64,000 nt of DNA, from positions 15,875 to 79,874 of the IMG/VR virus record IMGVR_UViG_3300031918_000730; one strand, 5' to 3'. This document shows, piece by piece, positions 10,339 to 61,744 of the stretch. Positions within the stretch are counted from its first letter, which is position 1. Every line of letters begins with the position of its first letter. The DNA comes from a virus. The notes under the pieces were generated by a model that worked only from the letters and a program-made list of their open reading frames with translations, had not been told where the DNA came from and did no database searches. A program made the translations under genes and the position numbers.

Positions 10339-10899
10339 TTAGACAGGAATACTGGGGAACGCATTTCCGAAGTAGGTGTTGAGTCCCTTATAGACATTCT
10401 TGATCACCAATAGTTCGGACGGCACAATTAGATTAGGGAACTCGTCTAGTATGCTGATGTTATCAACATCGCTACTGTCAGTTACAAATACACATGAATA
10501 CGATTCAGTTGCGAACATATCAACATATACAGTTACGAATTTATTCAATACTGCAATAGCGTCAGCTTCTTCGTCATATGAACCTGTAATCACGTCAATC
10601 ATGAACTCACGATCCGAATCATCTCCATTACAACTGATTGACTGTAAGGCAGTCGCAACATCTGGAGAGACTAATACAGAAACGAACATTCTATTCTTGC
10701 AATCACGAACAACCGAAGCCGCAGTTACTATCTGAGTGAATATCGTCTTAAATTTCTCCTGCGACCATCTTCCCATAAATGCTTCTCCGGGAGTCACATC
10801 GAGGATTTCAGGCTCACCTGCGAATGAATTTACGATACGTCCTAGTTCGAGAACTGCGGTAGTGTGTAGATCTAGGTTTTTTTCTTTTGTAGTTGTCAT
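10339..10899 (-). CDS. truncated major-capsid-protein paralog (approximately the A-domain only)
   Basis: Shares DVTP, GRWSQEKF, VSxDVATALQS, YVDxFA and GLNxYFGNxF, in order, with the MCP at 7722-9053. Confidence 0.85.
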   Translation of the reverse strand: MTTTKEKNLDLHTTAVLELGRIVNSFAGEPEILDVTPGEAFMGRWSQEKFKTIFTQIVTAASVVRDCKNRMFVSVLVSPDVATALQSISCNGDDSDREFMIDVITGSYDEEADAIAVLNKFVTVYVDMFATESYSCVFVTDSSDVDNISILDEFPNLIVPSELLVIKNVYKGLNTYFGNAFPSIPV

Positions 10900-10905
10900 G
10901 TATAT

Positions 10906-10914
10906 ATTGTAGCA
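10906..10914 (-). promoter_or_regulatory. extended -10 promoter TGCTACAAT, leaderless
   Basis: 6 nt before the ATG at 10899. Confidence 0.7.
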
Positions 10915-10920
10915 GTCTAC

Positions 10921-10926
10921 TAAATA
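10921..10926 (+). promoter_or_regulatory. late promoter (CTAAATA), leaderless
   Basis: 5 nt before ATG 10932. Confidence 0.7.
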
Positions 10927-10931
10927 TTGGA

Positions 10932-11687
10932 ATGTTCATTTCAAGAGATCAGGCTAAGGAATTAATTTTGTTGGAGTTGGGCGCTCCGATGGTGGATATT
11001 AATCTGAAGCTACTTCCAGATGCAATTAGCCCAATGAATCATCTAGACAAGGCTATCAATGAGACACTCGACCTATTCTTCAGATATAATACTGACGAGT
11101 CAGTGTATCAGACTTGGATAGTAATACCTGCAGTCCCAAATCAGTCGATATATAAGGTACCTCAGAACATTGAAGGTGTCGTGGAAATGTGGCCTTCTAC
11201 TGGAGGTATTCTACAATCACCGTTTATGATGGTCGACACTAGTTCAATGGAAACACTGATCTCACTGAACGCCAACTTTAACGAGTGGGACATTGTATCA
11301 TATACTGCATCTAGACTGTTCCTTGCCGAAGTAAACAAGGCAGTAGGTGAACAATTCTACCCTAAGCTAATCGTTAATGCGCAAGGTGAAAAGGAACTTC
11401 ATATCTTCCCTCCACCTCGCAACACTGGATTCCCTAGGGCAATAGTCGGTAGGGCATATCGAAGAGCAGAATTAGGTAGCGTATACGGCCACCCATTCTT
11501 CGTGAAGATCGCATCCGGTCTTCTGATGCAGATTTGGGGTCGTTCGTTGGGTAAGTTTAGTAGGACTATGCCCGGAGGTGGAACTGTAAATGCATCTGAC
11601 ATCAAGAATGACGGTAAGGAACTATTCGATACTTGGTTCACAATGCTAAGGAACGAGTCGGCACCTCCCCTAGGGGCGGCGTACTAA
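10932..11687 (+). CDS. gp13: neck/head-completion protein (T4 gp13-like); start revised to 10932
   Basis: LILLELGAPMVDINL, QIWGRSLGKF and MPGGGTVNA match gp13 motifs. Confidence 0.88.
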   Translation: MFISRDQAKELILLELGAPMVDINLKLLPDAISPMNHLDKAINETLDLFFRYNTDESVYQTWIVIPAVPNQSIYKVPQNIEGVVEMWPSTGGILQSPFMMVDTSSMETLISLNANFNEWDIVSYTASRLFLAEVNKAVGEQFYPKLIVNAQGEKELHIFPPPRNTGFPRAIVGRAYRRAELGSVYGHPFFVKIASGLLMQIWGRSLGKFSRTMPGGGTVNASDIKNDGKELFDTWFTMLRNESAPPLGAAY

Positions 11688-12046
11688 GCGCACTGACTGA
11701 ATTCTAGAATGTCAATATAGTAGCGTTCTTCGCCTATTTTCGAAAAGATGGTATACTTGCCATCTTTTTTTATTACCTGCGGGTTCTTATGTTTCTTCAA
11801 TGTCAGTTCATATGCGAACTTCTCGAACTCTTCAGGTGAACTCACCTCAGTTTCGAGTTGTTGCTTCTTAGTCATCCCACCTTCAATCATACTGAAGGCC
11901 ATTCCGGCCACCATAGTCTGGGTACTATACTTGACGACTTTTTTGCGAGATCCGATGTGCTTTGCGGTTTTGAGATCATTCGCCGCAATCATTCTATTTC
12001 TTACACTGTCTGCGCTCTTACCTGTATATCCAGAAAGTTCTATCAC
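11684..12046 (-). CDS. hypothetical protein co-transcribed with the sigma factor
   Basis: 120 aa; GTG start abuts the sigma stop codon. Confidence 0.55.
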   Translation of the reverse strand: MIELSGYTGKSADSVRNRMIAANDLKTAKHIGSRKKVVKYSTQTMVAGMAFSMIEGGMTKKQQLETEVSSPEEFEKFAYELTLKKHKNPQVIKKDGKYTIFSKIGEERYYIDILEFSQCA

Positions 12047-13273
12047 TTAAAACTCCAAATTAGAATGTGATTCCCAGCCAGTGTCGATAGCATATGCGTC
12101 GAGTAGAGTCTTATTCTTACCTAGAACCTTCTTCAGGTTTGCAATTGCCTTCTTGCGAATCCTGTCATATTCATTTGGTTGAATATTCAACTCAGTGATG
12201 ATTTCTTCCTTACTCTTAATCTCACTACGGGGGTTTATCCCGAAGTGATACTTCAAGTAATACTGTTCGGCGTCATTGTTCACAGATTCAACGTAATTAC
12301 GGATCAACGATCTCAGGTCTTTGATTGTGACGTTGTCGGACTCGTCGATGATGTAATTGTCGATGAGGTTATCTTCGAAGGAGGCACCTACCGATTGCTG
12401 GTTCTTATGTTCGTGGAACCTAGCGTCAGTGTCGATCTGATAGTAAGCGAAGGACACATCAAGATTAGAAAGGCTAGATACCTTCTTCTTCATATGAACA
12501 ATTATCTCTTCTTCCATCGGATCTCTATTGAGCCTATGTCGTAGTTCCTTGCGGATTTTCTCGACTTCCTTAGCCTGCTCCCGGACATTGACAGGTATTC
12601 TGATTAGTGAATCCTTGTCGGCGATAGCCCTATTGATAGACGCTTTGATCCATTGAGATGCGTAGGTGCTGAATTTGATACCTAGGCTACAATTGAAGAG
12701 TTCGATTGCCCTGCGAAGACCTAGAGTGCCCTCGGAGAACAAGTCTTTCACTGTCAAATCTACAGTGTTCTTATACGACGACAATATTCGGAGTATGATT
12801 TTCACGTTCGACAGGTATATCTTGTCAATATGGTACTGCATGTCCTTCTGCATGACGTTGAAAATCATGTTCGGGGTTCCATTTGACTCGTATGCGGTCA
12901 GGACTTCACGGTAGATGTCGTATGATACATTGAAGTTGTCGGAGTATTCAATGATCTGCTCCCTTGTCATGTCAGCGATAGATGAAACAAACGACAAAGT
13001 CATCTTAGAGTTGTAGTCGTAGTCCTCTGCGCAGACAAAGGTGTCTGTCATGAATGCTTCATGTGCATTGCCAGTGGCAATGAGGTGCGTTACCACTTGC
13101 AGGAACTTGGCGAATGCAGTGTCATCTGCGAGACAGCTACGGAAGATCCTGTTCTTGGTCGCGTTGATATTGGAAAATACGAAAAATTCCTGCTCCTTGA
13201 GCAGAATTGGATTTCTAGCGACAGTGTTTTCCAACGAACTCTTGAGTTCGTTGAACTCTACTAGGAAGGCCAT
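12047..13273 (-). CDS. phage-encoded RpoD/sigma70-family sigma factor
   Basis: Region 2: DLFSEGTLGLRRAIELF...GIKFSTYASQWIKASINRAIAD. Region 3.0: LIRIPVN. Region 4 is degenerate. Confidence 0.92.
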   Translation of the reverse strand: MAFLVEFNELKSSLENTVARNPILLKEQEFFVFSNINATKNRIFRSCLADDTAFAKFLQVVTHLIATGNAHEAFMTDTFVCAEDYDYNSKMTLSFVSSIADMTREQIIEYSDNFNVSYDIYREVLTAYESNGTPNMIFNVMQKDMQYHIDKIYLSNVKIILRILSSYKNTVDLTVKDLFSEGTLGLRRAIELFNCSLGIKFSTYASQWIKASINRAIADKDSLIRIPVNVREQAKEVEKIRKELRHRLNRDPMEEEIIVHMKKKVSSLSNLDVSFAYYQIDTDARFHEHKNQQSVGASFEDNLIDNYIIDESDNVTIKDLRSLIRNYVESVNNDAEQYYLKYHFGINPRSEIKSKEEIITELNIQPNEYDRIRKKAIANLKKVLGKNKTLLDAYAIDTGWESHSNLEF

Positions 13274-13302
13274 TAAAACTCCATTTCGGGCGAACTAGAG
13301 AA

Positions 13303-13893
13303 TCAAAATACCTTCGGGAAAATAGCCTCCATCAACTTGGTCAGGCCACCGAAGCGCACGCTCTCCGACTTATTCCTAAAGTAATTTAAGGTCTGCGCAT
13401 CTGTCAACCCCATAATGAAAGAAGTGTCGATGTATAGCGACACCACCTCAGAAATTCGCTTCTCGAAACTCAAGTCGTCGGAGTCGAGAGAGCTAGGGTT
13501 GTCGAAGCGTTCAGATATTACCTGTAGGAATCTGGTTGTCGAGTTAATGATCGCTTCTTGAGATTCGTCATTTAGAGTGTTCACTTCATCTACGTCGACG
13601 AGTTCGACCTCAATGTCGTTGTCTTTACTGTATTTCACAAATACGTCTAAGAAATACGAGCAACCATTAAGATATGCTTCAATCTGCGCCCCGAAGATTT
13701 CACCGTAGATCTTCTGGGCTTTGTCGTTCTTATCGTCGTCTTCTACGAATGAACTACATTCTCCGATGATGTACTCTGAGAGCTTCTCCTTCACTTCCTG
13801 AAAATCCACCCCGACCTGAAGCATCGCGATTGAGATCTTGTTGGATGAATCTGCGTACTCTTCTTCTGTCAGTGGATTATCTTCATTGCTCAT
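13303..13893 (-). CDS. acidic hypothetical protein; start revised to 13893 (MSNEDNP)
   Basis: TGCTACAAT box 7 nt upstream; the longer ORF-track start overlaps the divergent gene. Confidence 0.65.
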   Translation of the reverse strand: MSNEDNPLTEEEYADSSNKISIAMLQVGVDFQEVKEKLSEYIIGECSSFVEDDDKNDKAQKIYGEIFGAQIEAYLNGCSYFLDVFVKYSKDNDIEVELVDVDEVNTLNDESQEAIINSTTRFLQVISERFDNPSSLDSDDLSFEKRISEVVSLYIDTSFIMGLTDAQTLNYFRNKSESVRFGGLTKLMEAIFPKVF

Positions 13894-13900
13894 ATTTTTG

Positions 13901-13909
13901 ATTGTAGCA
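13901..13909 (-). promoter_or_regulatory. extended -10 promoter of the sigma operon
   Basis: TGCTACAAT on the minus strand. Confidence 0.7.
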
Positions 13910-13928
13910 CTCAATCTTAAGTTTCGAA

Positions 13929-13934
13929 TAAATA
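13929..13934 (+). promoter_or_regulatory. late promoter, leaderless
   Basis: ATAAATA, then 5 nt, then GTG 13940. Confidence 0.6.
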
Positions 13935-13939
13935 TCAAA

Positions 13940-14554
13940 GTGATTGATCTATTAGATGTGGTGCTCGTGAAGTACACTGGCCTCAGCGGTCGCGCCACTG
14001 AAGTAAACAGCATATCCTACAAGACTGTGGATTCCGCCACATACCTTGACAGTATAGATTCGATCAACTATGCTGTTAGATCACCATATGGTACAAGACC
14101 AAAAAATCTATCATACGAAAACTGGATAAAATTCAAGCTAAGGGTTAATCGGAAGTATAGGAAATGCCTCAAAGGCACTGCTATGCAACTTCCATGTGTT
14201 GACCTCGGATGCGACGACATGCAAGTGTATACTAAGATCAAGAACGTGAAACTATGGATTAAGTTCCAATGTTTCGTAGACTATGAAGTCAAGTATGCGT
14301 TCGCTAAGGAATATACTGCACCAGTCAGAACAGATAGCTCAATTGCAGTGAATAACATTAGGGCAATTCAGAACCCAAAATACAACAGTGAATATGTAGT
14401 CGAGATCCCAATTGGAAATCAAGACGGTGAAATGTTACTAGGTGAACTAGACTTGTATGAGAGTGACTTTTTCGTCTCGCAATTAATTGCGTATAAGGGA
14501 TGTCAGTTTCAGAATAGCATTATGAAGGTCTGCATCCACTACGACTTAGCTTAA
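13940..14554 (+). CDS. hypothetical late (structural?) protein; start revised to GTG 13940
   Basis: In-frame GTG at the same spacing from TAAATA as other late genes. Confidence 0.55.
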   Translation: MIDLLDVVLVKYTGLSGRATEVNSISYKTVDSATYLDSIDSINYAVRSPYGTRPKNLSYENWIKFKLRVNRKYRKCLKGTAMQLPCVDLGCDDMQVYTKIKNVKLWIKFQCFVDYEVKYAFAKEYTAPVRTDSSIAVNNIRAIQNPKYNSEYVVEIPIGNQDGEMLLGELDLYESDFFVSQLIAYKGCQFQNSIMKVCIHYDLA

Positions 14555-15798
14555 CTCTCTTGTGTTCTAGCAGTACCGAGGGTAGCTTTAATGTCGGCAA
14601 TATTACTCTGAACCACATTGGTAGGTTCTTTTGCGAGTATCGACCTTCCGGTGGAGTTGTTTATTTCAGTGCCACTATTAAGTAAGCTCTGAACTCCCTT
14701 AGACACTACAGCCCTGTTCATTCCTGATTCAAACGCCTCAAGTGCCTTCTGCTTAACTGCACCTCCGCCTATGCGATCAAGCTCGTCGTATATGACCTTG
14801 TTGGAGGCTAGGAGGCCGTTAATGATTCCCATGAGGTATTCGTTAGTGGAAGCCTGCATGACGCTAAAAAGGCCCTCTGAGCCTCCTAGAACGTCTATCA
14901 GAGAATCCCTTATGGCAACAGCCAATGCAGTACCTTTCCGTCTTGCGGCAAATGGCACGCCTCTCAATGCACTCGCAGGTACAGTGTCGGCAATATCACC
15001 GTGTCCGTTGGCTTTCAGGTTCTTGTAGATCCTTTCAACCACTGTTTGACTGAAGCAGTCACTTACATTGCTATCAGGCCCTACGTTCAATATTCCATAG
15101 TCAAATGGGAACGAAGGTACGGCGGCACTCTTGAACTTGATGGTTATCACTTTCCCGCTTAGGGTTGCCAATTCAGCATTCAAGTATTGATTAGTAGTCA
15201 ACATCGACGCGATGAGGGCTAATGTAAGATCTACAGATATAGTAGTTTCAGTAAGGTCGATGTCTAACGAAAGACCCTTCTGATAATTATCAGCTAACGG
15301 TAATTCCCAGACGTACCCTACTAAAGCAAGTGCAGTCTTTATGTTCTCATAGTCAAACTGGAATAGGTAATAATCGCCGAACTTACCATTCAAGCTAGGA
15401 TGTGTCTTTTTTAGGACCGTTGACGAATCTGCAGTTGATTGTGTAATTGTAGGTCCATTGAAGAACCCAGCACCTGCTGAACTGTCTGCCTTAGCCACAG
15501 GGCTTGCGCTTCTAGCTACAGCAACTGAACCAAAATCAAACAGTGGATTTAGTTCTTTTAGTTTATTGAGTCCATTCGTCGCATGGTCTTCAGGTCTTAC
15601 ATATGCCTTGCTCAATTTCGAGCCGTGCGGTAGGTATGGACTAATGTCATCCCAGAAACTAAACAGTTGCTCGGTCACATATACACCAACTGGTATGTCC
15701 AGTGGCGATTCTAGTGGGTAGTTAATCAGTAATTTACTGTACTCGGCCTGAATTGCAGATACTGTAGTATCTGAGGTCGATGGAGGTGTTATCAACAT
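14551..15798 (-). CDS. hypothetical late (structural?) protein
   Basis: 415 aa; GTAAATA 5 nt upstream (TAAATA at 15804-15809). Confidence 0.6.
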   Translation of the reverse strand: MLITPPSTSDTTVSAIQAEYSKLLINYPLESPLDIPVGVYVTEQLFSFWDDISPYLPHGSKLSKAYVRPEDHATNGLNKLKELNPLFDFGSVAVARSASPVAKADSSAGAGFFNGPTITQSTADSSTVLKKTHPSLNGKFGDYYLFQFDYENIKTALALVGYVWELPLADNYQKGLSLDIDLTETTISVDLTLALIASMLTTNQYLNAELATLSGKVITIKFKSAAVPSFPFDYGILNVGPDSNVSDCFSQTVVERIYKNLKANGHGDIADTVPASALRGVPFAARRKGTALAVAIRDSLIDVLGGSEGLFSVMQASTNEYLMGIINGLLASNKVIYDELDRIGGGAVKQKALEAFESGMNRAVVSKGVQSLLNSGTEINNSTGRSILAKEPTNVVQSNIADIKATLGTARTQES

Positions 15799-15806
15799 GA
15801 TTGTAT

Positions 15807-17483: not shown

Positions 17484-18052
17484 TGCATGTTATTCTTAAT
17501 TCTCAATATATTTATTGCGTTACTTATTCTATATGAGATTGAATCGATTCTAGCCATAGCTTTTTCAATGACAGAAAGAACAGCACGAATGTTATTGATC
17601 TTCTCCTCTAACTCAATATGCTCAGGATTGATAGTGATGAGGTTTTTGATTTCCTTATCATTTAGAAGAACTCCATTATGGACCTCTGGATTCCTCTTAT
17701 ATTCTTGAGTGATGAGAGCCTCTAGAGCTAATAGCTTCTTGGTATTCTTTTCCAAGAATCGATTATACTCATTATGTCTACGGACCCATTTAGACTCAAT
17801 GATGTTTATACTAGCATTGTAGTTATATAGAAGGTCTAGATCAGTAGGTACTGCGGTATCTTCCTCAAACTCATTCATCAGTTGCGTGACTGTGTGAGTC
17901 TGGTTTCTCTCGAACTCTATGATCGATGGAGATGAGAATTTCAGGTTTAGCTCTACAGTTATGCCTGCTCTGATCTCGTTGTAGGTAGCTGGAGCCTTGA
18001 GTTCTACTTCACCCTTATGCACCTTAGATCTAGTTTTCTTTTCCGTTTCCAT
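17477..18052 (-). CDS. uvsY: recombination mediator UvsY-like
   Basis: Helical protein next to uvsW; C-terminal IDSISYRISNAINI resembles the UvsY C-terminus. Confidence 0.55.
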   Translation of the reverse strand: METEKKTRSKVHKGEVELKAPATYNEIRAGITVELNLKFSSPSIIEFERNQTHTVTQLMNEFEEDTAVPTDLDLLYNYNASINIIESKWVRRHNEYNRFLEKNTKKLLALEALITQEYKRNPEVHNGVLLNDKEIKNLITINPEHIELEEKINNIRAVLSVIEKAMARIDSISYRISNAINILRIKNNMQW

Positions 18053-18058
18053 ATCTCT

Positions 18059-18067
18059 ATTTTAGCA
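18059..18067 (-). promoter_or_regulatory. extended -10 promoter TGCTAAAAT, leaderless
   Basis: 6 nt before the ATG at 18052. Confidence 0.65.
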
Positions 18068-18079
18068 TTAATGATGCTT

Positions 18080-18541: not shown

Positions 18542-18582
18542 GTCAGTATCTTAGCAGGATTTTTCTACATACTAGCGTAAAT

Positions 18583-18591
18583 TGCTACAAT
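18583..18591 (+). promoter_or_regulatory. extended -10 promoter TGCTACAAT (leadered)
   Basis: Followed by AAGGAG SD and ATG 18610. Confidence 0.7.
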
Positions 18592-18609
18592 CAAGGTAAA
18601 GGAGAACAC

Positions 18610-26673: not shown

Positions 26674-26688
26674 TGTTACCATAATAGT

Positions 26689-28146
26689 ATGTCTAAGAAA
26701 CACAATTCGCCAAATAGCCAAAAAGCATCTTCGAAGAAGTCCGGCAAGAAGATTGCTCAGCTTCGGAAGGAGATTAGCGACCTCGAAAAGTCCCTGACTC
26801 CCGAGATGATCGAGAAGGTTAGTGCTCAGGTGATTGCATCGCAGAGCAACGCGCTCTACGGAGGCATTGCAAACACCGCAGAGAACTATCTGTCTAAGAC
26901 TGTGATGGTCAATCCGAACGCCCCTGAGGACACCCTACAGGCCAATGTGTCTGTCCCCACTGCCGCCGCCATCGGACCTGTTGCATTGGTCGAGAAGCCA
27001 TATGTCTACGGATACACTTCAGACTTTTCAGGGTCTGCACAGTTCCGTATGATCTTCCCCTTTAATGCAATCAACGCGCATTTCGGACATACTGGAAAGC
27101 TCCAGTGCATGGTGCAGAATCAGATTGTCACTCAAGAAGACATTCTTCCTTTCGTAAGGGCATTCTGGTTCAAGAATCCGTTCGAGAGCAACCGCTCGTA
27201 TGAGATTTACGTTTACAAGAAGTATCAGGAAAGGTATCAGTACAAGCTGATCGCCGAACTCGACGACTATGTATTCGAATATCCAGAGTGGCATCCACTC
27301 CATGGAAAGTTCACAATTGATGATGCACGCAACCTATTGGATAACCTGCGTAAGGTTGATGAAGTTGTGGTTTCTTCTGAGAATCTGAAGAGATTGCTTG
27401 TCGAGCTAGGAGTCAATACTCCAATTACTCTCATGCCAAATCTCCTTCCGAAGGCATACTACGGAACAGACATCAGCAAGCGTTACCGTTTGAAGGATAT
27501 TGCAAAGCCAACTATTCTATACAACGGAACAAACTACCACTACGGAAACTCCAACGGAGACTTCGACGGTCCTATCAAGGAATTCATCCTGAAGAACCTA
27601 GACAACTACAACTTCATCTTCATGGGTGTTGGTCGTAGATTGGATGGTTCCCTGACTCTCCCTGATTACTTGCAAGTTCCTGCAAAGGAAGGTCGCATCA
27701 AGATCATGCCGCACTATGCTCCGACTGAGTATCCATATGCTCTTCGTCAGTTGCGTCCTGATTTCGTCATCGCACCTCTCGCAGAATGCGCATTTAACGA
27801 AGCAAAGTCGGACCTTAGGTACCTAGAGTCTGCATCTACTGGAGCAATCTTCATTGGACAGTCCTTCGCAAACGGGAACAGTCCATATAAGTACTGCAGA
27901 AATGTCTTCGAAAAGGCATCCGACATTGAGGAAATCGTAAATCGCCTCCTCAATAAGGACACTTTCAACGAGGCACTCAAGTTACAGTACGAAGAGCTTA
28001 ATACCAGATGGCTCGACGACGTGAATAACCTCTTGAATATCGTCAAGATCTTCGGAGAGGGTTTGAACGGAGTCCAGTTGACACCTGAACATGAACAGTA
28101 TAATCAGTTCAAGAATAGGCTCGACGAAGACGGATTCTTCCGGTAA
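26689..28146 (+). CDS. GT-B fold glycosyltransferase
   Basis: GSAQFRMIFP, ELDDY, APLAECAFNEAKSDLRYLE; TGTTACCAT box 6 nt upstream. Confidence 0.75.
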   Translation: MSKKHNSPNSQKASSKKSGKKIAQLRKEISDLEKSLTPEMIEKVSAQVIASQSNALYGGIANTAENYLSKTVMVNPNAPEDTLQANVSVPTAAAIGPVALVEKPYVYGYTSDFSGSAQFRMIFPFNAINAHFGHTGKLQCMVQNQIVTQEDILPFVRAFWFKNPFESNRSYEIYVYKKYQERYQYKLIAELDDYVFEYPEWHPLHGKFTIDDARNLLDNLRKVDEVVVSSENLKRLLVELGVNTPITLMPNLLPKAYYGTDISKRYRLKDIAKPTILYNGTNYHYGNSNGDFDGPIKEFILKNLDNYNFIFMGVGRRLDGSLTLPDYLQVPAKEGRIKIMPHYAPTEYPYALRQLRPDFVIAPLAECAFNEAKSDLRYLESASTGAIFIGQSFANGNSPYKYCRNVFEKASDIEEIVNRLLNKDTFNEALKLQYEELNTRWLDDVNNLLNIVKIFGEGLNGVQLTPEHEQYNQFKNRLDEDGFFR

Positions 28147-28490
28147 TGAGGAAGTTAGACAAACCTCAATTCGACAAGGCGGCTCAGAAGACAATTTCTG
28201 ACGAAGCCGCCTTGTTAGAAAAGAGAATTTTATCTGACTTGGCTGAGATGATAACAGAAGCCCATACTCGATTAGTCGAGTCTGGGGTTTTTGATAAATT
28301 CAAGGCACATCTAGCTGGTAAGAAGCCCAGCGAATCCGACGTTAGGCACTTCAAGAAGCTGATTGAGCAGGCCGTTTTCGCAAACGATGCTCTTTTTAAG
28401 AAGTATTTCGACGTGATTGTTGAGCGCGACCCCGCAAATCGTGCTAACATCGGCTTCGAGTTTAGGGTAAAGCCGGACCTCTTCCGCTGA
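28146..28490 (+). CDS. hypothetical protein; C-terminus weakly resembles a tail-sheath C-terminal domain
   Basis: YFDVIVERDPANRANIGFEFRVKP. Confidence 0.55.
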   Translation: MRKLDKPQFDKAAQKTISDEAALLEKRILSDLAEMITEAHTRLVESGVFDKFKAHLAGKKPSESDVRHFKKLIEQAVFANDALFKKYFDVIVERDPANRANIGFEFRVKPDLFR

Positions 28491-39110: not shown

Positions 39111-39743
39111 ATGCAAGCCACTTCGATAAGAAAATGCCCACGATGTAGTAGAGAATTAGCGTTATCTAGTTTCTATGTGAATAAGAAAACTGGTAGAGTA
39201 TATTCGTATTGTAAGCAATGTAACAATGAAATGAGTAGAAATAGAGATAAAGAAAAAACAAAGAAATATAATAAACTAAAATACTTAAAGAATAAGGAAG
39301 AGTATAATAAGAATAGCTCTGAAAATTATTACGCGAATCAACAGAAATACATTGACTATGCCATTAAGAGAGAAGCCATTAGGAAACTTGAGGAGCCTAA
39401 GTATGCATTCACTAGGAGACTTAGGGATAGGATCAGAAAATCGTTCAGGCGACTAAGTGTAAATGGAAAAGTTAAGTCATGTAAAGAATATGGAATCGAC
39501 TTCGAAGAAATCTATTTACATTTAGGCGAAAAGCCTAGTGAGAATTTCGAATTAGATCACATTATTCCATTAAGTGTTTTTAACCTTGACATCGCTGAGC
39601 ATGTCAAGTTAGCTAATTCTAAGTACAACTTGAGATGGATTAGTTGCTCAGATAATAGAAAAAAGCACACTACGATCCCAGCAATCGCATATGAAGATGA
39701 TAAACTTAGAGATATTTTAGTGGCTATAGGTTTGTTAGAATAG
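39111..39743 (+). CDS. free-standing HNH homing endonuclease with N-terminal zinc finger
   Basis: CPRC...CKQC, ELDHIIPLS...NLRWISCSDNRKK; AT-rich; late promoter at 39100-39105. Confidence 0.82.
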   Translation: MQATSIRKCPRCSRELALSSFYVNKKTGRVYSYCKQCNNEMSRNRDKEKTKKYNKLKYLKNKEEYNKNSSENYYANQQKYIDYAIKREAIRKLEEPKYAFTRRLRDRIRKSFRRLSVNGKVKSCKEYGIDFEEIYLHLGEKPSENFELDHIIPLSVFNLDIAEHVKLANSKYNLRWISCSDNRKKHTTIPAIAYEDDKLRDILVAIGLLE

Positions 39744-39747
39744 GTAC

Positions 39748-40548
39748 ATGCGCATATTAGGACTTGACTTAAGTATTACATCCCCCGGCTTCTGCATAAT
39801 GGACGTTAATGAGGACGATGGATATAGAATCCGACAAATCGACCTTCATGGCTTCACGAAGACTGACAAGTGGAAGTTTGAAGGAGATGGCCTAATAATC
39901 CACCAATTCCCGAAAGACTATAACCAACACCCTTCACACTACAGACCTACACTGGTGTACGATATAGTGGAACCTTACCTGAAAGAGATTGACTATGTAG
40001 CCATCGAAGACTACGCTTTCGGTGCTAAGGGTAAGGTATTTGACTTGGCGGAATTCGCAGGGTCTATGAAAAACTACATGTACGATAGAAGAATACCTAT
40101 CAAGAAGTTCCCCCCTATGACAGTGAAGCTATGTGCGGCAGGTAGCGGAGCGGCTGACAAGGTACTCATGGGAATGAGCTTCAAGGCATCTAGCCTATCT
40201 AAGTTGGTAAATCCGTATTTGTTCATGCTCCCTGAGTACGATAACCCGCAAGAGGACTTGGTAGATGCAATCTATATGGCAAATACTCTAAGGGCTGAAA
40301 TATGCTACATGGCAACAGGAGCTTTTCCAGTTGATCTCGGAATGAATGTGAATAATTGCGCAACTGCAATTCTATTGGGTAAGAAGGGGGCTAAGACTAA
40401 GCCTTCAATTGAACATCCACTCATCACATTCGGAGCATTCACTAGAGTTAAGAAAGAGAAGAAGGTCAAGAAGAGTGACGCCGAGGTTGAAGTAAAGGTA
40501 TCTAAGAAACGAGAACCTAAGAAGAAGCTGATAGTGCCCAAGCAATAA
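39748..40548 (+). CDS. RuvC-like Holliday junction resolvase
   Basis: ILGLDLSITSPG, AIEDYAF, LAE, KLCAAGSGAADK, DLVDA. Confidence 0.85.
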   Translation: MRILGLDLSITSPGFCIMDVNEDDGYRIRQIDLHGFTKTDKWKFEGDGLIIHQFPKDYNQHPSHYRPTLVYDIVEPYLKEIDYVAIEDYAFGAKGKVFDLAEFAGSMKNYMYDRRIPIKKFPPMTVKLCAAGSGAADKVLMGMSFKASSLSKLVNPYLFMLPEYDNPQEDLVDAIYMANTLRAEICYMATGAFPVDLGMNVNNCATAILLGKKGAKTKPSIEHPLITFGAFTRVKKEKKVKKSDAEVEVKVSKKREPKKKLIVPKQ

Positions 40549-41289: not shown

Positions 41290-41307
41290 TCTTGCTACCA
41301 TAAAGAC

Positions 41308-42258
41308 ATGAAACTAAGACACCTAGTGGTTGACGTTGGTGGACTGTCCTACTGGAAGCTACACTCTCTCGCCAGCAAAATGAAGTGCGAACAACTCGGA
41401 CTCCCTAAAGAAGCCATCCTAGCGATGGAATCTGAAGGTGGATTTAAGGAGTGGATCTACGATGTCAAGATGGAAGTTCTTGATATGATCCAGAGCTTCA
41501 ATCCAGATCTACTAACCCTTGCCTGCGACGGAAAGAACCTCTGGCGCAAGGACATTTATCCTGATTACAAGGATAATCGCAAGGCAAACAAGGCGAAAAT
41601 CCCCATCGACTGGAATCTGTTCTATCAGACCAGAGACATGTTGATGAATGCATTCGCTGAGAATATGCCAGTCAAGACTGTCCTATTGGACCGGATCGAG
41701 GCTGACGATATTATTGCAGTATTGACTGAGAAGCTACACGAAACTCAGGAAATCATTGCATTGTCGAATGACGCCGACTGGCATCAGTTGTTCAAGTACG
41801 AAGGATTCAGAGTCTTCAAGATCAACGATCCAAGTCCAACTGCATATTTTAGCAGAGGCCCTGAGGGTAGAACTGAGATTACTGGAGTTGATCCGGTGAA
41901 ACTCATTCAGATGAAGATTCTCACTGGTGATACCGGAGATAACATCCCCAACCTCAAGCCAAGACTTGGCGAGAAGACCGCAGAAAAAATCATCCTTGAG
42001 AGCAATGGAAACATTTACGCATATGCTCAGCGCGAAGGATTGCTTGCAGAGTTCGAACGTAACCAGAAGCTCATCAATTTGGACAGAATCCCACAGGAAA
42101 TTAAGGATTCTATCTGGAATGCGTACAATTCGAAGCCTGTTACCGAAGTTGATCATTTGCTGTTGATGGATTTCTATCCAGAAAACTACGATTTGATAAC
42201 TCAAATGTCACATTTGCATATTTTCTCACATGCAAAAGTCAAAAATCTCGGCTGGTAA
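41308..42258 (+). CDS. rnh: T4 RNase H / 5'-3' exonuclease
   Basis: WRKDIYPDYKDNR, EADDII, ILTGDTGDNIP, GEKTA. Confidence 0.9.
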   Translation: MKLRHLVVDVGGLSYWKLHSLASKMKCEQLGLPKEAILAMESEGGFKEWIYDVKMEVLDMIQSFNPDLLTLACDGKNLWRKDIYPDYKDNRKANKAKIPIDWNLFYQTRDMLMNAFAENMPVKTVLLDRIEADDIIAVLTEKLHETQEIIALSNDADWHQLFKYEGFRVFKINDPSPTAYFSRGPEGRTEITGVDPVKLIQMKILTGDTGDNIPNLKPRLGEKTAEKIILESNGNIYAYAQREGLLAEFERNQKLINLDRIPQEIKDSIWNAYNSKPVTEVDHLLLMDFYPENYDLITQMSHLHIFSHAKVKNLGW

Positions 42259-46297: not shown

Positions 46298-46714
46298 ATG
46301 GACCATACTAAGAAAACAACTTTCGCTGGATTCGTTAACATTGATAAGTCCAATAAGTATTGGATGGAAGGGCACTTCGAACACGGAGAAGACGCCCCTA
46401 CACTATTCAGATTCAATACCAAGGAAGAGCGAGATACTGTTCAAGAGGTTGCCCAGTCGTATCTCGATAATTGGGGATGCGATGCGCTTGAACTTGTAAT
46501 ATTCGAAGCAAAGGCAAGACATGTGGTGACTTTGAAAAAAAGGACCGAGAGTGAAATCACATTAGCTAGGCAGAAATCTAAGAGTGATGCCGAAGCAAAG
46601 CGTGAACGCGCAGTCGCTGAAGTTGCTGTAGTGTCTCAGGTTGAGACAGGCACTCAACCAGACACCGCCCCTAAGAAGAGGGGTAGGAAACCCAAGACTA
46701 GTGCTACAATATAG
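46298..46714 (+). CDS. hypothetical protein with C-terminal AT-hook-like motif
   Basis: PKKRGRKPK. Confidence 0.6.
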   Translation: MDHTKKTTFAGFVNIDKSNKYWMEGHFEHGEDAPTLFRFNTKEERDTVQEVAQSYLDNWGCDALELVIFEAKARHVVTLKKRTESEITLARQKSKSDAEAKRERAVAEVAVVSQVETGTQPDTAPKKRGRKPKTSATI

Positions 46715-46716
46715 GC

Positions 46717-47043
46717 ATGAGCACAAAACTTAACCTGTCACAGCGCCTCTGGCTTATCGATTCTATCGGTAGCCTTCCATCAACCACTGAGAGAATCAAG
46801 GAAGCCGATGGATTCATCGCAATCCTTGCACCTAACGACGCCGAACTGAGTGTCGAAGGTTTGAATTTCACCGCAGACGAGAATGGTCTACAGTGGGATA
46901 CTGCAGTTGAAGCCGAGAAGGTTCCTGCACTTGAAGTCGAAATCCCAGAGATCCTATACTCTGCACTGAAGGATAAATTTTCAGTTCAGATGAAAGATCC
47001 TACTGGACTTGACTTGGAAATGATCGACCTACTCTCCCTGTAA
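46717..47043 (+). CDS. hypothetical protein
   Basis: 108 aa; TGCTACAAT at 46702-46710, 6 nt upstream. Confidence 0.65.
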   Translation: MSTKLNLSQRLWLIDSIGSLPSTTERIKEADGFIAILAPNDAELSVEGLNFTADENGLQWDTAVEAEKVPALEVEIPEILYSALKDKFSVQMKDPTGLDLEMIDLLSL

Positions 47044-50545: not shown

Positions 50546-50546
50546 G

Positions 50547-53179: not shown

Positions 53180-53202
53180 GCGCAACCGTCAGTAGGAAAG
53201 AG

Positions 53203-53230: not shown

Positions 53231-53248
53231 GCGTGCTACAATATTCGC

Positions 53249-53752
53249 ATGGAACAACACACTACAATCAAGACCGACCTCAATGGTACAATCCGCAACC
53301 GTGGCTTCATTCGCGCACAGGATAGCGCAGTGGCGGCTACTGAGGGCTTCACGATGCCCCGCAGGTCTACCAAGCTGTCCGCAGGCTACGACCTCTTCAA
53401 CAACACCGGAGAGGCCATTGTACTAAAGGCAGGCACTACTTCAGACAAGATCTCGACTGGCGTCATTGCTGTGATGAGATCAGATGAATACCTTGCCGTC
53501 TTTGTGCGTAGTGGACATGGATTTAAGTTCAGTGCTCGACTCGCCAACTCGACAGGTATCATCGATGCAGATTACATGAAGGAAATCTTCCTCAAGATCC
53601 GCAATCCGTATGATACTGACATCGTAATTCCCGCAGGCGAGGCAATCGCACAGGGTATTTTCATGAACTACCTCACCACCGACGACGACTCGGAAACTGT
53701 AGGCGGAGATAGAACTGGCGGATTGGGTTCAACCAACGCAACGAAAGGCTAA
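53249..53752 (+). CDS. dut: trimeric dUTPase; start revised to 53249
   Basis: SAGYDL, RSG, GIIDADY, AQG, RTGGLGST; TGCTACAAT at 53234-53242. Confidence 0.92.
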   Translation: MEQHTTIKTDLNGTIRNRGFIRAQDSAVAATEGFTMPRRSTKLSAGYDLFNNTGEAIVLKAGTTSDKISTGVIAVMRSDEYLAVFVRSGHGFKFSARLANSTGIIDADYMKEIFLKIRNPYDTDIVIPAGEAIAQGIFMNYLTTDDDSETVGGDRTGGLGSTNATKG

Positions 53753-53757
53753 TTAGA

Positions 53758-54564: not shown

Positions 54565-54565
54565 A

Positions 54566-56004: not shown

Positions 56005-56034
56005 AAAACTCAAAAATCCGAACTAAATATTTGG

Positions 56035-57057: not shown

Positions 57058-57077
57058 TTTCAGATAAAATAGTAAGT

Positions 57078-57287
57078 ATGATAGGCGACGAAACAGTCAA
57101 TGGCAAAAAAGTCTTCAATGTTGACTTTCTAGATTTCTGTAGAATTGTTACCAGAAGTGAAAGGAGAACAAAGTTCTCCCTAGATAATGAGCCGCTGATG
57201 GAGCATATTGTGAAGACCAGATATGCTCGTAAGTTTGTAATTCAGTTCGATGGAGTTATCCTCGACGCTGAATCACTTGGCCGATGA
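57078..57287 (+). CDS. small hypothetical protein
   Basis: 69 aa; TAAAAT box 7 nt upstream. Confidence 0.55.
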   Translation: MIGDETVNGKKVFNVDFLDFCRIVTRSERRTKFSLDNEPLMEHIVKTRYARKFVIQFDGVILDAESLGR

Positions 57288-57827
57288 AGTACCCCAGACG
57301 AAAGCAATAGTTGCAAGTATCACGCCTACAGTAATTTGCTTCCATCCTATCTTTTCTTCATATTGTGTGATGATTACTTTTTGAGTGTCGACCTCTTTAA
57401 CAATAGTGGCTACTGCACTTGTACAGGTTGCAACTACCCTAGAGGAAGCCTCATACTTAATCGAGTCTCTAATACGCTGATTGTTAGCGTCTAGTGCCTT
57501 CCTAAGTTGAGTGTATCCGGTCGTGTACTTTGTAGTGTCTATCGAATCGCGTTCGAAAGTCTTATTGAACATCGTATCTACACTATCTGGGCTTGTTCTC
57601 CATAAAGTGTCGTGCTTTGTCCTATATCGAATTTCAGCCTTTTCTTTGATAGTGTCGTACTTAATTACCGTATCACGGACCTTAGATTGCTCGGCGTGCG
57701 CAGTCTTAGAAATAGTATCTATTGCTTGACTTGCACCCGAACAACTCTTCAAAGGGCCGAATGTGAAGAGTGAAAAAAGTACAACGAATAGAGCAACGAT
57801 TCCCCATCGAGTTAATTCTTCGCGCAT
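57273..57827 (-). CDS. spanin-like protein (possible unimolecular spanin)
   Basis: N-terminal hydrophobic signal ending LKSC, C-terminal TM segment; directly downstream of the endolysin. Confidence 0.55.
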   Translation of the reverse strand: MREELTRWGIVALFVVLFSLFTFGPLKSCSGASQAIDTISKTAHAEQSKVRDTVIKYDTIKEKAEIRYRTKHDTLWRTSPDSVDTMFNKTFERDSIDTTKYTTGYTQLRKALDANNQRIRDSIKYEASSRVVATCTSAVATIVKEVDTQKVIITQYEEKIGWKQITVGVILATIAFVWGTSSAK

Positions 57828-57829
57828 GA

Positions 57830-58228
57830 TTAAGCCTTGAACCAGAGTACTTCGTTATTGATTCGAGAGCGGACATCGACGTGAAGCCAGCTAACTCCAA
57901 GTTCAACACCGCCTAGATTCTTCAATTTACCTGCGGCCACCGCCTCTTTCACCTTAGCCCTAGCAACCTCTGCAGACATTCCACTCGGATGCATATCTGC
58001 GGCCTGTCCTAGCTTATGTTTGCTCTTGGGTGCTCCAATGGTACATTTCTTAGTCCTAAGACCACACCACTGTCGATCTCCACCTGAAGCGTAGTTATTG
58101 ATCGAACATGGAACTCCTAGAAGTTCTCTAATTTCGTCAATCAGGTCTAGTAGCTTCTGGTCAATTAACTTGACATTAGTTTCACCCTCAGGTAGCAACT
58201 CTTCGGCCTTGAAATACTTACTTATCAT
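57830..58228 (-). CDS. endolysin, peptidase M15 family
   Basis: GLR, SKHKLGQAAD, WLHVD; late promoter at 58254-58259 with AAGGAG SD. Confidence 0.85.
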   Translation of the reverse strand: MISKYFKAEELLPEGETNVKLIDQKLLDLIDEIRELLGVPCSINNYASGGDRQWCGLRTKKCTIGAPKSKHKLGQAADMHPSGMSAEVARAKVKEAVAAGKLKNLGGVELGVSWLHVDVRSRINNEVLWFKA

Positions 58229-58278
58229 TACAACTCCTTATGTTGAACTCAATTATTTAGTATTCCATAAATATCAAT

Positions 58279-58626
58279 ATGAAGCTCGGGACATTTATAC
58301 AGAGGATTTTCTGCGAACCAGACGGGACTCCGTCGAATAAAAGACTAATCGCTAGTTATTCTGTATTGGTGTATTCGCTCGTGATGTTGTCTGCTTTTTT
58401 CTTAGCACTCCCTCTCACCGAGAGCGTAATTCATATGGCCGACGTATTACTCGGAAGCGCAATGGGTACTTATGTGGTTGGTAGATTTGCAGAAAAGAAG
58501 CCATTACTACAAGTCGAAGAACCTGAGCCAGAACCAGAGCCGACTCCTAAAAGAGTAAAGAAGGTAGTTGACACTGAAGAGGAAACTCCAGAAGAGTCAA
58601 CAGAAGATTCAGTCAAGAAACAGTAA
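58279..58626 (+). CDS. holin-like membrane protein
   Basis: Two TM segments after SNKR, charged C-terminal tail, late promoter at 58268-58273, next to the endolysin. Confidence 0.65.
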   Translation: MKLGTFIQRIFCEPDGTPSNKRLIASYSVLVYSLVMLSAFFLALPLTESVIHMADVLLGSAMGTYVVGRFAEKKPLLQVEEPEPEPEPTPKRVKKVVDTEEETPEESTEDSVKKQ

Positions 58627-58644
58627 ATTCGCTATAATACGAGT

Positions 58645-59460
58645 ATGCGAATAACTGTACTCACCGTCTGCTATAACGAAGAATATCTAATTCGAGACTT
58701 TCTCGATCACTATCGAGGATTAGGCGTGAATCGTATTGTAGTGTACGATAACATGTCGACCGATAATACCGTTGCGATATGTAAAGAGTACGACAAAACA
58801 CACCAAGGTTGTAGTGTTGAGGTTGTGAACTACGACACTAACGGGCAAATTAGAGATGACGTATATCTTGAAATCAAGAATAACGCATGGAAGAAGTACA
58901 AGTCTGACTATTTCATCGTAGTTGACTGTGACGAATTCTTGGAAGTACCACTCACATGCGACGAAGATGCCGAAGACAATAAGAGACTCGTAAGGTATCT
59001 CGCAGGTATGAAGAAGGGATATGTCCTTCCGAAGGTACTCGGAGTCCAGATTGTAAATGATGATCGTGATGATATTGACATCAGCTTCGACAATGATACT
59101 AAGCAATGCGTAAGGGACGATACTTTCAATAAGAGATGTATCTTCAGTAGGGAATTGGTGCCTGTATATAGACCCGGATGTCACGCATTCTCAGTCGAGC
59201 CGAAGAACAGGGCCGCGCTAGAGGCATCCATTGCAGTAGAATCTACAGTGAAGCCTCTATACCTATTCCACCTCAAGTATATTGACCGTGAATACGTCAT
59301 CAAGCGACATGCTGAGTTCAAGACTAGATTGTCCGATTTCAATAAGAAGAACAATTACGGACATCAGTATACCATGGACGCTAAGGCAATCGGATTGAAA
59401 TTCGACTACCTGAAGAAGTACGCGACTACGCTTCTAGAAGTATTTGCTAAGGGATACTAA
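58645..59460 (+). CDS. glycosyltransferase family 2
   Basis: CYNEE, YDNMSTDNT, VDCDEF. Confidence 0.85.
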   Translation: MRITVLTVCYNEEYLIRDFLDHYRGLGVNRIVVYDNMSTDNTVAICKEYDKTHQGCSVEVVNYDTNGQIRDDVYLEIKNNAWKKYKSDYFIVVDCDEFLEVPLTCDEDAEDNKRLVRYLAGMKKGYVLPKVLGVQIVNDDRDDIDISFDNDTKQCVRDDTFNKRCIFSRELVPVYRPGCHAFSVEPKNRAALEASIAVESTVKPLYLFHLKYIDREYVIKRHAEFKTRLSDFNKKNNYGHQYTMDAKAIGLKFDYLKKYATTLLEVFAKGY

Positions 59461-60203
59461 TGCTAGATTTGACGTTAGTTAGCTGTAACTACAATACTCC
59501 AGCCCAGATAGAGACTATGTTGAAGTCTTGGGCTGTTCATAATGAAGAAGTATCTCGAAACTGCCTAATCATGGAGCATTCGAGCAATGACGACTCGATT
59601 GAATTCCTAAATTCGAGTGGAGTTCCATATGTTCGGAGCCGAGGCGCTGTTCATTATAGGGGGGTCGAGGCCGCACTTAGTTTAGTGAACACTAGGTACA
59701 TGCTACTAGTTGATTCAGACGTTGTATTCAATAAACCTCTCATGCCAGTGTTACAGCACTACATTGACAGTTCTATTCACGTCGCAGGTCATGTTGAAGG
59801 TGATCGAGGTGGATTCCTTTTGCATAAGAGAGTACATCCATGGTTCTGTTTCATCGACGTTGACTTCGTTGCACATCATAGTTTGAAATATGTGGACCTC
59901 CACAAGGTCAGAAAGACTAGATCAGAGGGTTTCTACGGAAACATACCAACTACCGACTTCCATCCAATTAAGAAGTATGACGTTGGAGCTACATTCTTGG
60001 AAGATGTAATGGGAGTTAATGGTAGAGTCCTGAACCACAACATAGAGGGGGATTTCTTCACTCACTTCGAAGGCATGTCGTGGAGGAAGAACACTGACAT
60101 TCAGCAGTTACTAGACGCCGCTAACGAAACAGACAAAAGATTTGAAGTGGAATACAAAAAATATATAAATGTAGATTTGAAAGGGTTTTTTAATGCGCGT
60201 TAG
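59460..60203 (+). CDS. glycosyltransferase family 2-like
   Basis: SCNYNT, LLVDSDV, HPWFCFID. Confidence 0.78.
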   Translation: MLDLTLVSCNYNTPAQIETMLKSWAVHNEEVSRNCLIMEHSSNDDSIEFLNSSGVPYVRSRGAVHYRGVEAALSLVNTRYMLLVDSDVVFNKPLMPVLQHYIDSSIHVAGHVEGDRGGFLLHKRVHPWFCFIDVDFVAHHSLKYVDLHKVRKTRSEGFYGNIPTTDFHPIKKYDVGATFLEDVMGVNGRVLNHNIEGDFFTHFEGMSWRKNTDIQQLLDAANETDKRFEVEYKKYINVDLKGFFNAR

Positions 60204-60978
60204 TTATGTTCAGCCGATATTTGCACCTAATGAAGAAATGACGATCAGGAATCTAACAAGTCTGAAATCATTCTTCGACTATTACGAAAGCCATAATTAC
60301 AATTTCAAGTGTGTATTTGGTGGATATTCTAGTGACGATGCTAACTGGGATCGCATCTCAAAGTATATTCAATCTAGAAACAAACAAGCTATCATCTACA
60401 GATTCGATAAGAACTATGGAAAGGCTCATGTCGTAAATCACTTAGTGAGTGCATTTCTAGACGATGAGACGTATTTCCTTACTGCAGACTCAGACATTAT
60501 ATACAAGATGGACGAGGATGACATAATTAGTAGACTGATCGAAGCGTTCGCAGAAGCAAATAGGCTAAATCTAACACCCGCATTGATCTCCTTATTTCAG
60601 GAGGTCAATAATTGCCAGATGCTTGAGTTGTGCTATGAGAATAGGTACTACTATCACGGAGAATACAACTTCGAAATGTTCTGTCACCCGAATGGGAGTG
60701 GTGGAGTTGCGGGTGGGTGTCTATTCATTTCTAAGAAATTCTGGGATCGAGTTGGCGGCTATAGGGTACTTGGAGTATATGCAGGTGATGACGCTAACCT
60801 GATGCAGGACGCATATAACAACGGCTACAAATTCCTAATGTCGAATTCAGTGAGATGCATACACCCAAATGAGACGATGCCAGCATATAGGGAATGGAAG
60901 ATTAAGGTGTGTCCTACTGTTCAGGAGTTGGATGTAGCTGTAGACGATGCCAACAATTTCTGGAAAATGAGGGGCTAA
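60193..60978 (+). CDS. glycosyltransferase family 2-like
   Basis: NYGKA, TADSDI, GGCLFI..KFWDRVGGY, YAGDD. Confidence 0.8.
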   Translation: MRVSYVQPIFAPNEEMTIRNLTSLKSFFDYYESHNYNFKCVFGGYSSDDANWDRISKYIQSRNKQAIIYRFDKNYGKAHVVNHLVSAFLDDETYFLTADSDIIYKMDEDDIISRLIEAFAEANRLNLTPALISLFQEVNNCQMLELCYENRYYYHGEYNFEMFCHPNGSGGVAGGCLFISKKFWDRVGGYRVLGVYAGDDANLMQDAYNNGYKFLMSNSVRCIHPNETMPAYREWKIKVCPTVQELDVAVDDANNFWKMRG

Positions 60979-60986
60979 ATACTCAA

Positions 60987-61508
60987 ATGCCATACAGTCA
61001 TCCAGCACACTACACTAATGTAGTAAACCTAATCAGAACAAACTTCAACCCTAGCGAGACTTCAATTATTGATATTGGATGTGGCGCAGGTGTATATAGA
61101 GATCTCCTTCCAGAATATGTAATGGACGGAATTGAAGTATATGAGAAGTATATTAACGACTTCAAGTTGCGCGAGAAGTATCGCACAATCTTCAACGAAG
61201 ACGTTGTCGAGTTCAAGTTCACAGGTAAGAAGTATACTCTCGCAATCATGGGCGACATCTTAGAACACCTCAGCGTCGAAGATGCTAAGAAGGTTCTGAA
61301 TGCAATCAAGAAGGCAAATATTTCCCTCATTGTTCAGGTTCCTTACCTATATGAGCAGGGGGTTTATGACGGAAATGTACACGAGATCCATCTACAGCCA
61401 GACCTTACCCATGAAGTATTTCTGTCGAGATATGAGGAATATGGATTCAGTTTCCTAGTAGAGGATTCTGTTTGTGGGGCTTACTATATTTTCCGTAAGG
61501 GAGAGTAA
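60987..61508 (+). CDS. class I SAM-dependent methyltransferase; start revised to 60987
   Basis: IIDIGCGAG, GDILEHL; CTAAATA 5 nt upstream. Confidence 0.85.
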   Translation: MPYSHPAHYTNVVNLIRTNFNPSETSIIDIGCGAGVYRDLLPEYVMDGIEVYEKYINDFKLREKYRTIFNEDVVEFKFTGKKYTLAIMGDILEHLSVEDAKKVLNAIKKANISLIVQVPYLYEQGVYDGNVHEIHLQPDLTHEVFLSRYEEYGFSFLVEDSVCGAYYIFRKGE

Positions 61509-61510
61509 CA

Positions 61511-61744
61511 ATGAAGACGTTAACTAGATTTAAGAAGTGGGCTGTTCGTAAGATTTTCGGAGTAAAGTACGGAATCGACATCGAACTAGTAGGTACAGTA
61601 GCCTTCATCAGAGTCGACTGTGGATATATGCCACCTTCTAAAGCACAAGAACATACCCTGAGATATGCTAAGATATTCACTGAGGAAGTTAGGATTGCTA
61701 TGGGGGTAACCCATTGCCAATTTGTACCATACACCCGAGGATAA
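61511..61744 (+). CDS. 77-aa protein carrying the portal clip motif
   Basis: VDCGYMPPSKAQEH versus portal IPTGNMPPIKAEEH; GGGAG SD. Confidence 0.65.
   Translation: MKTLTRFKKWAVRKIFGVKYGIDIELVGTVAFIRVDCGYMPPSKAQEHTLRYAKIFTEEVRIAMGVTHCQFVPYTRG

Follow-up and report, generated by a model that had tools for sequence, protein, structure and literature searches.

Two small genes in a 64,000-nucleotide stretch of phage DNA encode proteins that each repeat one part of the phage's own head proteins. The stretch, called the window here, comprises bases 15875-79874 of the 79,874-base IMG/VR virus record IMGVR_UViG_3300031918_000730 (CheckV completeness 26%). One product, of 186 residues, is paralogous to the phage's own major capsid protein (MCP) but shorter. 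The other, of 77 residues, carries a robust short motif that corresponds to the strand-tip-helix alpha6 segment of the portal clip. Both can be described as structural-gene paralogues reduced to one interface. A third gene, which an earlier note on this DNA had grouped with these two, encodes a conserved small protein of 114 residues without an assigned role. The reading favored here, to which we give somewhat less than an even chance, is that these are three unrelated small accessory genes, two of which are self-derived pieces of head proteins that would serve as competitive copies of an interaction surface.

The source of the window is a deep-branching, uncultured T4-like jumbo phage. The closest capsid proteins from cultured phages, those of Pelagibacter phage HTVC008M and of cyanomyoviruses, are approximately 33% identical to its MCP. 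A complete relative (G001; 306,252 bases, terminal repeats present) is collinear with the fragment and has 71 proteins in common with it, at a median identity of 66.5%.

A shortened paralogue of the major capsid protein

The mini-capsid gene and its parent are as follows.

10339..10899, minus strand: mini-capsid gene, 186 residues, a shortened paralogue of the C-terminal half of the MCP (end of the spine helix, A-domain and C-terminal strands), supported by Pfam, BLASTP, hhalign and five intact homologues
7722-9053, plus strand: MCP gene, gp23-like, 443 residues, parent of the mini-capsid gene (PHROG 138, E 7e-71; Pfam Gp23, 248.6 bits; T4 gp23 chains in the PDB, E 8e-31)

The earlier note had recognized a capsid A-domain in the product of 10339-10899, and this likeness is borne out. 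The protein scores 33.6 bits against the Pfam family Gp23 (PF07068), for which the cut-off is 24.4 bits, and 31.4 bits in a six-frame search; the match covers only positions 196-314 of the 376 in the model. BLASTP pairs the protein with residues 256-439 of the phage's own MCP at 29% identity (E 3e-12), and an hhalign comparison of the mini-capsid and MCP profiles gives a probability of 99.2% (E 3e-19) over 170 columns, which span MCP residues 231-440.

The first 225-230 residues of the MCP have no counterpart in the mini-capsid protein, which accordingly lacks the N-arm, the E-loop, the insertion domain and most of the P-domain. There are also internal deletions relative to the MCP, and the strand region near the C terminus is shortened. 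Judged by the N-arm, E-loop, P-domain and A-domain of a complete HK97-type subunit, the protein is not such a subunit. The parts that are kept include stretches of very close agreement. The sequence GRWSQEKF is identical in the two proteins, and SPDVATALQS of the mini-capsid protein differs in a single residue from SQDVATALQS of the MCP. Through the alignment of the MCP to T4 gp23, the latter stretch corresponds to gp23 residues 380-389. In T4, these residues form a short helix at the intracapsomer subunit interface, and the helix includes the gp24-bypass sites N381 and A387 (PMC9546572).

Four homologues of 186-188 residues and 70-84% identity are found in public assemblies. A more distant version of 187 residues occupies the corresponding slot of a related record, L008, where it too is flanked by o269 and the neck gene; it is 28-30% identical, and the MCP and neck protein of the same two phages are 86% and 77% identical, respectively. 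The six versions of the mini-capsid (186-188 residues, 28-84% identity) contain no stop and no frameshift. This is a real gene rather than debris, and because six versions have stayed intact over such divergence, it is probably under selection. All versions have the motif ILDEFP in common, which is absent from MCPs, and this derived motif argues for a single origin of the mini-capsid genes.

The distribution of the gene is patchy. It is absent from the same slot in L004, L005, L006 and L009, where o269 and the neck gene abut, and the MCPs of these phages are 91-92% identical to that of the phage studied here. Because such close relatives have no mini-capsid gene, it is dispensable for assembly. 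All-against-all BLAST detects no second capsid paralogue anywhere in the genome of G001. A mini-capsid gene is likewise missing from the 6 kb around 40 further T4-like MCP genes of metagenomes, insofar as the contigs extend over that distance, and a metagenome scan with the mini-capsid profile recovers full-length capsid genes only. The mini-capsid gene is therefore an accessory, fast-evolving gene.

It had been claimed that all three small genes lie outside the operons of their cognate proteins. This is only partly true, because the mini-capsid gene is located inside the head-neck block, 1.3 kb downstream of the MCP gene, although on the opposite strand. The order after the MCP gene is two small genes, the 186-residue gene on the minus strand, and a gp14-like neck gene.

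Promoter classes

A predicted promoter directly precedes the mini-capsid gene, and its type recurs in the window.

10906..10914, minus strand: extended -10 box TGCTACAAT, 6 nucleotides before the mini-capsid ATG, a predicted leaderless, host-sigma70-type, non-late promoter
10897-10914 (minus strand), 18050-18067 (minus strand), 26674-26691, 39733-39750, 41293-41310, 46702-46719, 53234-53251 and 63665-63682: sites of the form TGNTANNAT-N6-ATG

The arrangement TGNTANNAT-N6-ATG occurs eight times in the window, against 0.99 expected, and the largest number in 100 shuffles is 4. An extended -10 box precedes the gene for a 485-residue glycosyltransferase, and the remaining TGNTANNAT boxes are found ahead of uvsY and of genes in the replication region. 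Structural (late) genes have TAAATA 5-6 nucleotides before their ATG, including the divergent neck gene, which is 33 bp from the mini-capsid gene. The two classes of box suggest leaderless transcripts from two classes of promoter. Both the function of the box and its timing are read from these motifs, which predict that the mini-capsid is expressed as a non-late gene.

A portal clip motif in a 77-residue protein

The second gene and the portal segment that it resembles are as follows.

61511..61744, plus strand: 77-residue mini-protein, residues 33-60 of which correspond to the portal clip strand, tip and helix (hhalign with null comparisons, homologues, synteny with G001, and an AlphaFold2 model)
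4029-5888, plus strand: portal gene in the head block, 619 residues (PHROG 213 portal, E 3e-84)
4935..5024, plus strand: portal segment matched by the 77-residue protein, residues 303-332 of 619, equivalent to approximately residues 285-312 of T4 gp20, the clip tip and helix alpha6 (alignment to gp20 chains)

BLAST aligns the 77-residue protein to the portal with 9 of 20 residues identical (E 0.04), which is insufficient alone. A comparison of profiles is more telling. The profile of the 77-residue family was built from four, later six, homologues of 75-77 residues, and that of the portal family from eight members. With these, hhalign aligns residues 33-60 of the small protein to residues 305-332 of the portal with a probability of 92% (E 6e-7). 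The score of this comparison is 48, and the maximum in 400 column shuffles is 22. The best score among the other open reading frames (ORFs) of the genome that are at least 100 residues long (111 in all) is 23.4, and the portal as a single sequence scores 32.6.

The same match is found in other phages. All-against-all BLAST of G001 aligns its 75-residue copy to the corresponding segment of the G001 portal (E 8e-4). A hidden Markov model of the 77-residue family also matches the portal ORF in five of five other phage records, searched as six-frame translations (E 4e-6 to 1e-3). The match to the clip tip and helix takes in approximately 28 of the 77 residues. Between this phage and G001 the protein has diverged to 43% identity, a value near the low end for the 71 shared proteins.

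An AlphaFold2 model of the protein (predicted local distance difference test score, pLDDT, 79) has a strand at residues 30-36, a turn, and a helix at residues 42-53, as in the T4 clip. Searches with this model (Foldseek against the PDB, BFVD, and a wide VIA-align search) have no portal among the matches listed, which are generic alpha/beta domains only, and the ESM Atlas contains no match to the protein. A whole clip fold, taken as three strands and one helix between two stem helices, is not demonstrated. Of the portal clip likeness previously proposed for 61511-61744, the part that stands is the short local match.

The search with the hidden Markov model also revealed clip motifs in small ORFs of two more distant T4-like phages.

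L103:1342-1842, plus strand: clip-motif ORF of 166 residues with the motif and, by eye, a weaker second motif-like stretch (hhalign probability 91.5%)
L104:1438-1602, minus strand: clip-motif ORF of 54 residues (hhalign probability 63%)

Both align to the same portal positions as the 77-residue protein, so that clip-motif mini-genes occur in three separate phage lineages. The 54-residue ORF is located between ORFs of 223 and 413 residues that are nuclease- and helicase-like by eye. Scans of IMG/VR with single proteins revealed no relatives of any of the three mini-proteins, and none were found in GenBank phages.

In the window, the 77-residue gene is part of an operon.

58645..63640, plus strand: operon of glycosyltransferase and methyltransferase genes, with the 77-residue gene fifth (Pfam Glycos_transf_2, Methyltransf and DUF3431; tight spacing; a TATAAT ends 6 nucleotides before the first ATG)

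This operon has the same order in G001, where the homologue is likewise the fifth gene. It is one of two separate sugar-transferase clusters in the window. It contains three glycosyltransferase family 2 (GT2) genes, an S-adenosylmethionine-dependent methyltransferase gene and a gene for a DUF3431 protein, and the other cluster, at 26689-28146, consists of the 485-residue glycosyltransferase gene. An antisense ORF of 101 residues (61447-61752, minus strand) covers the whole of the 77-residue gene and exceeds its length. Because this ORF is the longer of the two, gene calling by longest ORF drops the conserved 77-residue gene.

This context raises the possibility that the portal likeness is a product of convergence or chance, that the 77-residue protein is a subunit or adaptor of the transferase operon, and that the 114-residue protein likewise serves a neighboring glycosyltransferase. 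Here and in G001, each of the two genes is located within a group of sugar-transferase genes or is translationally coupled to one, and the whole-fold searches with the 77-residue model, with their generic domains, are in keeping with such a role. However, the clip match is far above both the shuffled and the real-protein nulls, it recurs in G001, and it picks out the portal in all five of the other records. In addition, the other two clip-motif mini-genes have different contexts. This reading is considered improbable.

The 114-residue protein and the tail sheath

The third gene is found in the other sugar-transferase cluster.

28146..28490, plus strand: gene for a 114-residue protein, in a family of 7; its start overlaps the stop of the 485-residue glycosyltransferase gene, and its sheath likeness is without sequence support

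Six homologues of 109-115 residues are found, and the copy in G001 is 58% identical. The claim that this protein resembles the C terminus of a tail sheath protein does not hold up in sequence comparisons. The sheath of this phage can itself be assigned by position only, to an 803-residue ORF (L003:11062-13473, plus strand) directly before the tail tube gene; both genes lie upstream of the window. That ORF has no PHROG, Pfam or PDB match, and the Pfam sheath families have no match in this phage or in G001. When the 114-residue family is compared with the 803-residue putative sheath, hhalign gives a probability of 0.5%. Smith-Waterman alignments of the 114-residue protein to the 803-residue ORF and to the phage's own gp25-like domain score at the shuffle mean. 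The protein has no Pfam or PDB match, and no member of its family hits PF17482 or PF04965 at E values up to 10.

The only positive sign is a fold match in the ESM Atlas, which serves as a lead. The model (pLDDT 0.67) matches sheath and gp25 clusters with template modeling (TM) scores of 0.49-0.52 over approximately 80 residues, and 7 of the 10 nearest clusters are labeled tail-sheath, gp25 or baseplate (Phage_sheath_1C, phiKZ gp29PR, GPW_gp25 and GP46).

The gp25-like baseplate wedge domain mentioned above is the C-terminal end of a 697-residue protein (L003:1245-3338, minus strand), not a small stand-alone gp25. A likeness of the 114-residue protein to the scaffold protein gp22 was also considered, on the basis of an hhalign score of 27.3 and a match to Pfam T4_CASP at E 0.21. 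Against the gp22 family profile the score is 22.8 and the probability 5.5%, and this candidate was rejected as noise.

Separate genes and their possible function

The three genes had been proposed to form one dispersed set or system. They are 17-33 kb apart in different transcription units, and G001 has the 77-residue and 114-residue genes without the mini-capsid gene. With no linkage and no co-inheritance, they are independent accessory genes and do not amount to a demonstrated system. The related idea that pieces of structural proteins have been carved out as small genes survives for the capsid C-terminal half and the portal clip tip, but not for the sheath.

The premise that capsid and portal surfaces are sensed by host immunity agrees with published work. 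In MCP monomers, the A-domain face through which capsomers form is the target of Avs7, Avs8 and Avs10, and these sensors become active only once their lobes have closed around the entire fold (PMC13581612). The clip helix of the portal is the docking site of SpbK, which becomes active by clustering on the 12 such helices that an assembled portal presents, and Avs4 makes contact with the portal's stem, clip and wing (PMC12847820). The clip also has a partner within the phage. In T4 gp20 the clip consists of residues 279-358, and its tip (N291, M292, R295 and K296) faces the large terminase, gp17. The substitution M292I blocks the start of packaging, and a 24-residue gp20 peptide (residues 288-311) binds gp17 and inhibits packaging (PMC4493910).

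If the capsid and portal pieces are competitive copies of an interaction surface, the 186-residue protein would act through the A-domain helix that lines the intracapsomer subunit face, which it keeps nearly letter for letter. Its expression would probably be driven by a host-type promoter, ahead of the late genes. A protein of this form should be unable to enter the shell lattice, but it could occupy binders of that face of the capsid monomer, and its partner might be either the capsid protein or a host sensor like Avs7, Avs8 and Avs10. The clip segment of the 77-residue protein corresponds to the site at which the large terminase docks, followed later by the neck. This protein would thus most likely bind the terminase, the neck, or a host protein that senses the clip. 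Binding of the clip piece to the phage's own terminase or neck seems at least as well founded as binding to a sensor.

Several observations weigh against competitive copies. The AlphaFold2 model of the 186-residue protein, made with a 6-row alignment, has a pLDDT of 37, which leaves its independent fold unproven. The mini-clip segments track their own portal group weakly and not clearly. The timing of the promoters is read from motifs only, and a late-box gene is located directly upstream of the operon that holds the 77-residue gene. That the 77-residue and 114-residue genes are each found in a glycosyltransferase operon hints at an unrelated role. Finally, binding, timing of expression and any effect on immunity or packaging are inferred from sequence. 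A complex prediction for the large terminase of G001 and its 75-residue clip-motif protein, run without controls, has a score of 0.00 and is evidence neither way.

Within the reading of competitive copies, one possible use is immune evasion by self-mimicry. Free copies of the A-domain face and the clip helix, if present before the late genes, might be ligands that cannot trigger clamping or clustering; this proposal is regarded as unlikely. Similarly doubtful is the broader proposal that all three genes constitute a set of decoys, each of which would saturate a capsid, portal or sheath sensor without activating it. Because Avs7, Avs8 and Avs10 bind the A-domain face of monomers and need the whole fold for activation (PMC13581612), and because a monomeric copy of the clip could bind SpbK without clustering it (PMC12847820), such decoys are plausible. 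The non-late promoter class, fast divergence and patchy presence would also fit counter-defense genes. On the other hand, the sheath member of the set is without sequence support, the genes are neither linked nor co-inherited, and a free A-domain might trigger sensors instead of blocking them. Moreover, the literature search yielded no published phage-encoded decoy of this kind.

Alternately, the mini-proteins might regulate the phage's own morphogenesis. The clip copy could hold the terminase nuclease inactive until proheads are ready, and the A-domain copy could cap capsid monomers, or act as their chaperone, ahead of assembly. In experiments, the one activity known for an isolated clip-tip peptide, namely gp17 binding and inhibition of packaging (PMC4493910), points in this direction. 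So do the kept A-domain helix, which is a capsomer interface, and the location of the mini-capsid gene inside the head-neck block. However, relatives with nearly the same MCP have no mini-capsid, and an assembly factor, which has to fit highly conserved partners, would not usually diverge so fast. The 77-residue gene, moreover, is part of a glycosylation operon approximately 56 kb from the head genes. A morphogenetic role, too, has the probabilities against it.

Truncated copies of an interface are classic dominant negatives, and the two pieces could also be weapons against co-infecting related phages, by poisoning capsomer formation or the docking of terminase to portal. The patchy, lineage-specific presence of the genes and the inhibition of packaging by the clip peptide (PMC4493910) would be expected of such weapons. 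Because the retained motifs hardly differ from those in the phage's own proteins, the phage would be expected to poison itself as well, and there is no sign of specificity. This role is the hardest to credit and is considered very improbable.

Other genes of the head block and of the complete relative

Two more genes of the head block are found between the portal and MCP genes.

6085-6834: prohead protease gene
6834-7559: scaffold-like gene

In G001, short ORFs that resemble part of a longer ORF were also seen outside the genes described above. Short-versus-long pairs include 124409-126370 (plus strand) with 147408-147593 (minus strand), and further members are 160836-161642, 163767-163925 and 168842-169024. 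A 61-residue ORF of G001 is 51% identical over 37 residues to a 653-residue protein without a known family.

Relation to known proteins and significance

Duplication of structural genes is known in phages, as with gp23 and gp24. T4 gp24 is the closest counterpart of the mini-capsid. Each is the product of a duplicate of the capsid gene, is encoded next to that gene, and has the A-domain. However, gp24 is a full-length HK97-fold shell subunit that is made late, whereas the mini-capsid has 186 residues against the 443 of the MCP, without the N-arm, E-loop, insertion domain and most of the P-domain. Unlike gp24, it is encoded on the strand opposite to the MCP gene, is preceded by a non-late box, and has no counterpart in the corresponding slot of four close relatives. 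The mini-capsid is thus not a gp24-type protein, if this means a second paralogue of the capsid protein that is full-length and conserved together with the head module. In the A-domain interface of T4 gp23, residues 381 and 387 determine whether hexamers or pentamers form (PMC9958956, PMC9546572).

The nearest counterpart of the 77-residue protein is the synthetic T4 gp20 peptide 288-311, which contains the same strand-tip-helix segment of the clip. That peptide is a laboratory product, whereas the 77-residue protein is encoded by a natural gene, and its segment is located within a small domain that is predicted to fold. The parts kept by the two mini-proteins are also those recognized by Avs7, Avs8 and Avs10 (MCP A-domain) and by SpbK and Avs4 (portal clip), but these are bacterial receptors, not phage proteins. 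The literature search revealed no phage-encoded fragment that competes with Avs7/8/10, SpbK or Avs4, and the literature searched contains no free-standing, cut-down copies of structural proteins that keep one interaction surface.

What has been kept gives the two genes their significance. The capsid piece holds the interface helix that is reportedly bound by three Avs families, and the portal piece is both the docking surface of SpbK and the segment that, as an isolated peptide, binds terminase. Because clip-motif mini-genes are found in three separate phage lineages, the phenomenon may be general. If the mini-proteins bind terminase or capsid monomers, they would be new regulators of head assembly. 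If they block sensors, they would represent a new class of counter-defense, and should self-mimicry prove true, the recurring clip-motif mini-genes of jumbo phages would constitute a widespread counter-defense family.

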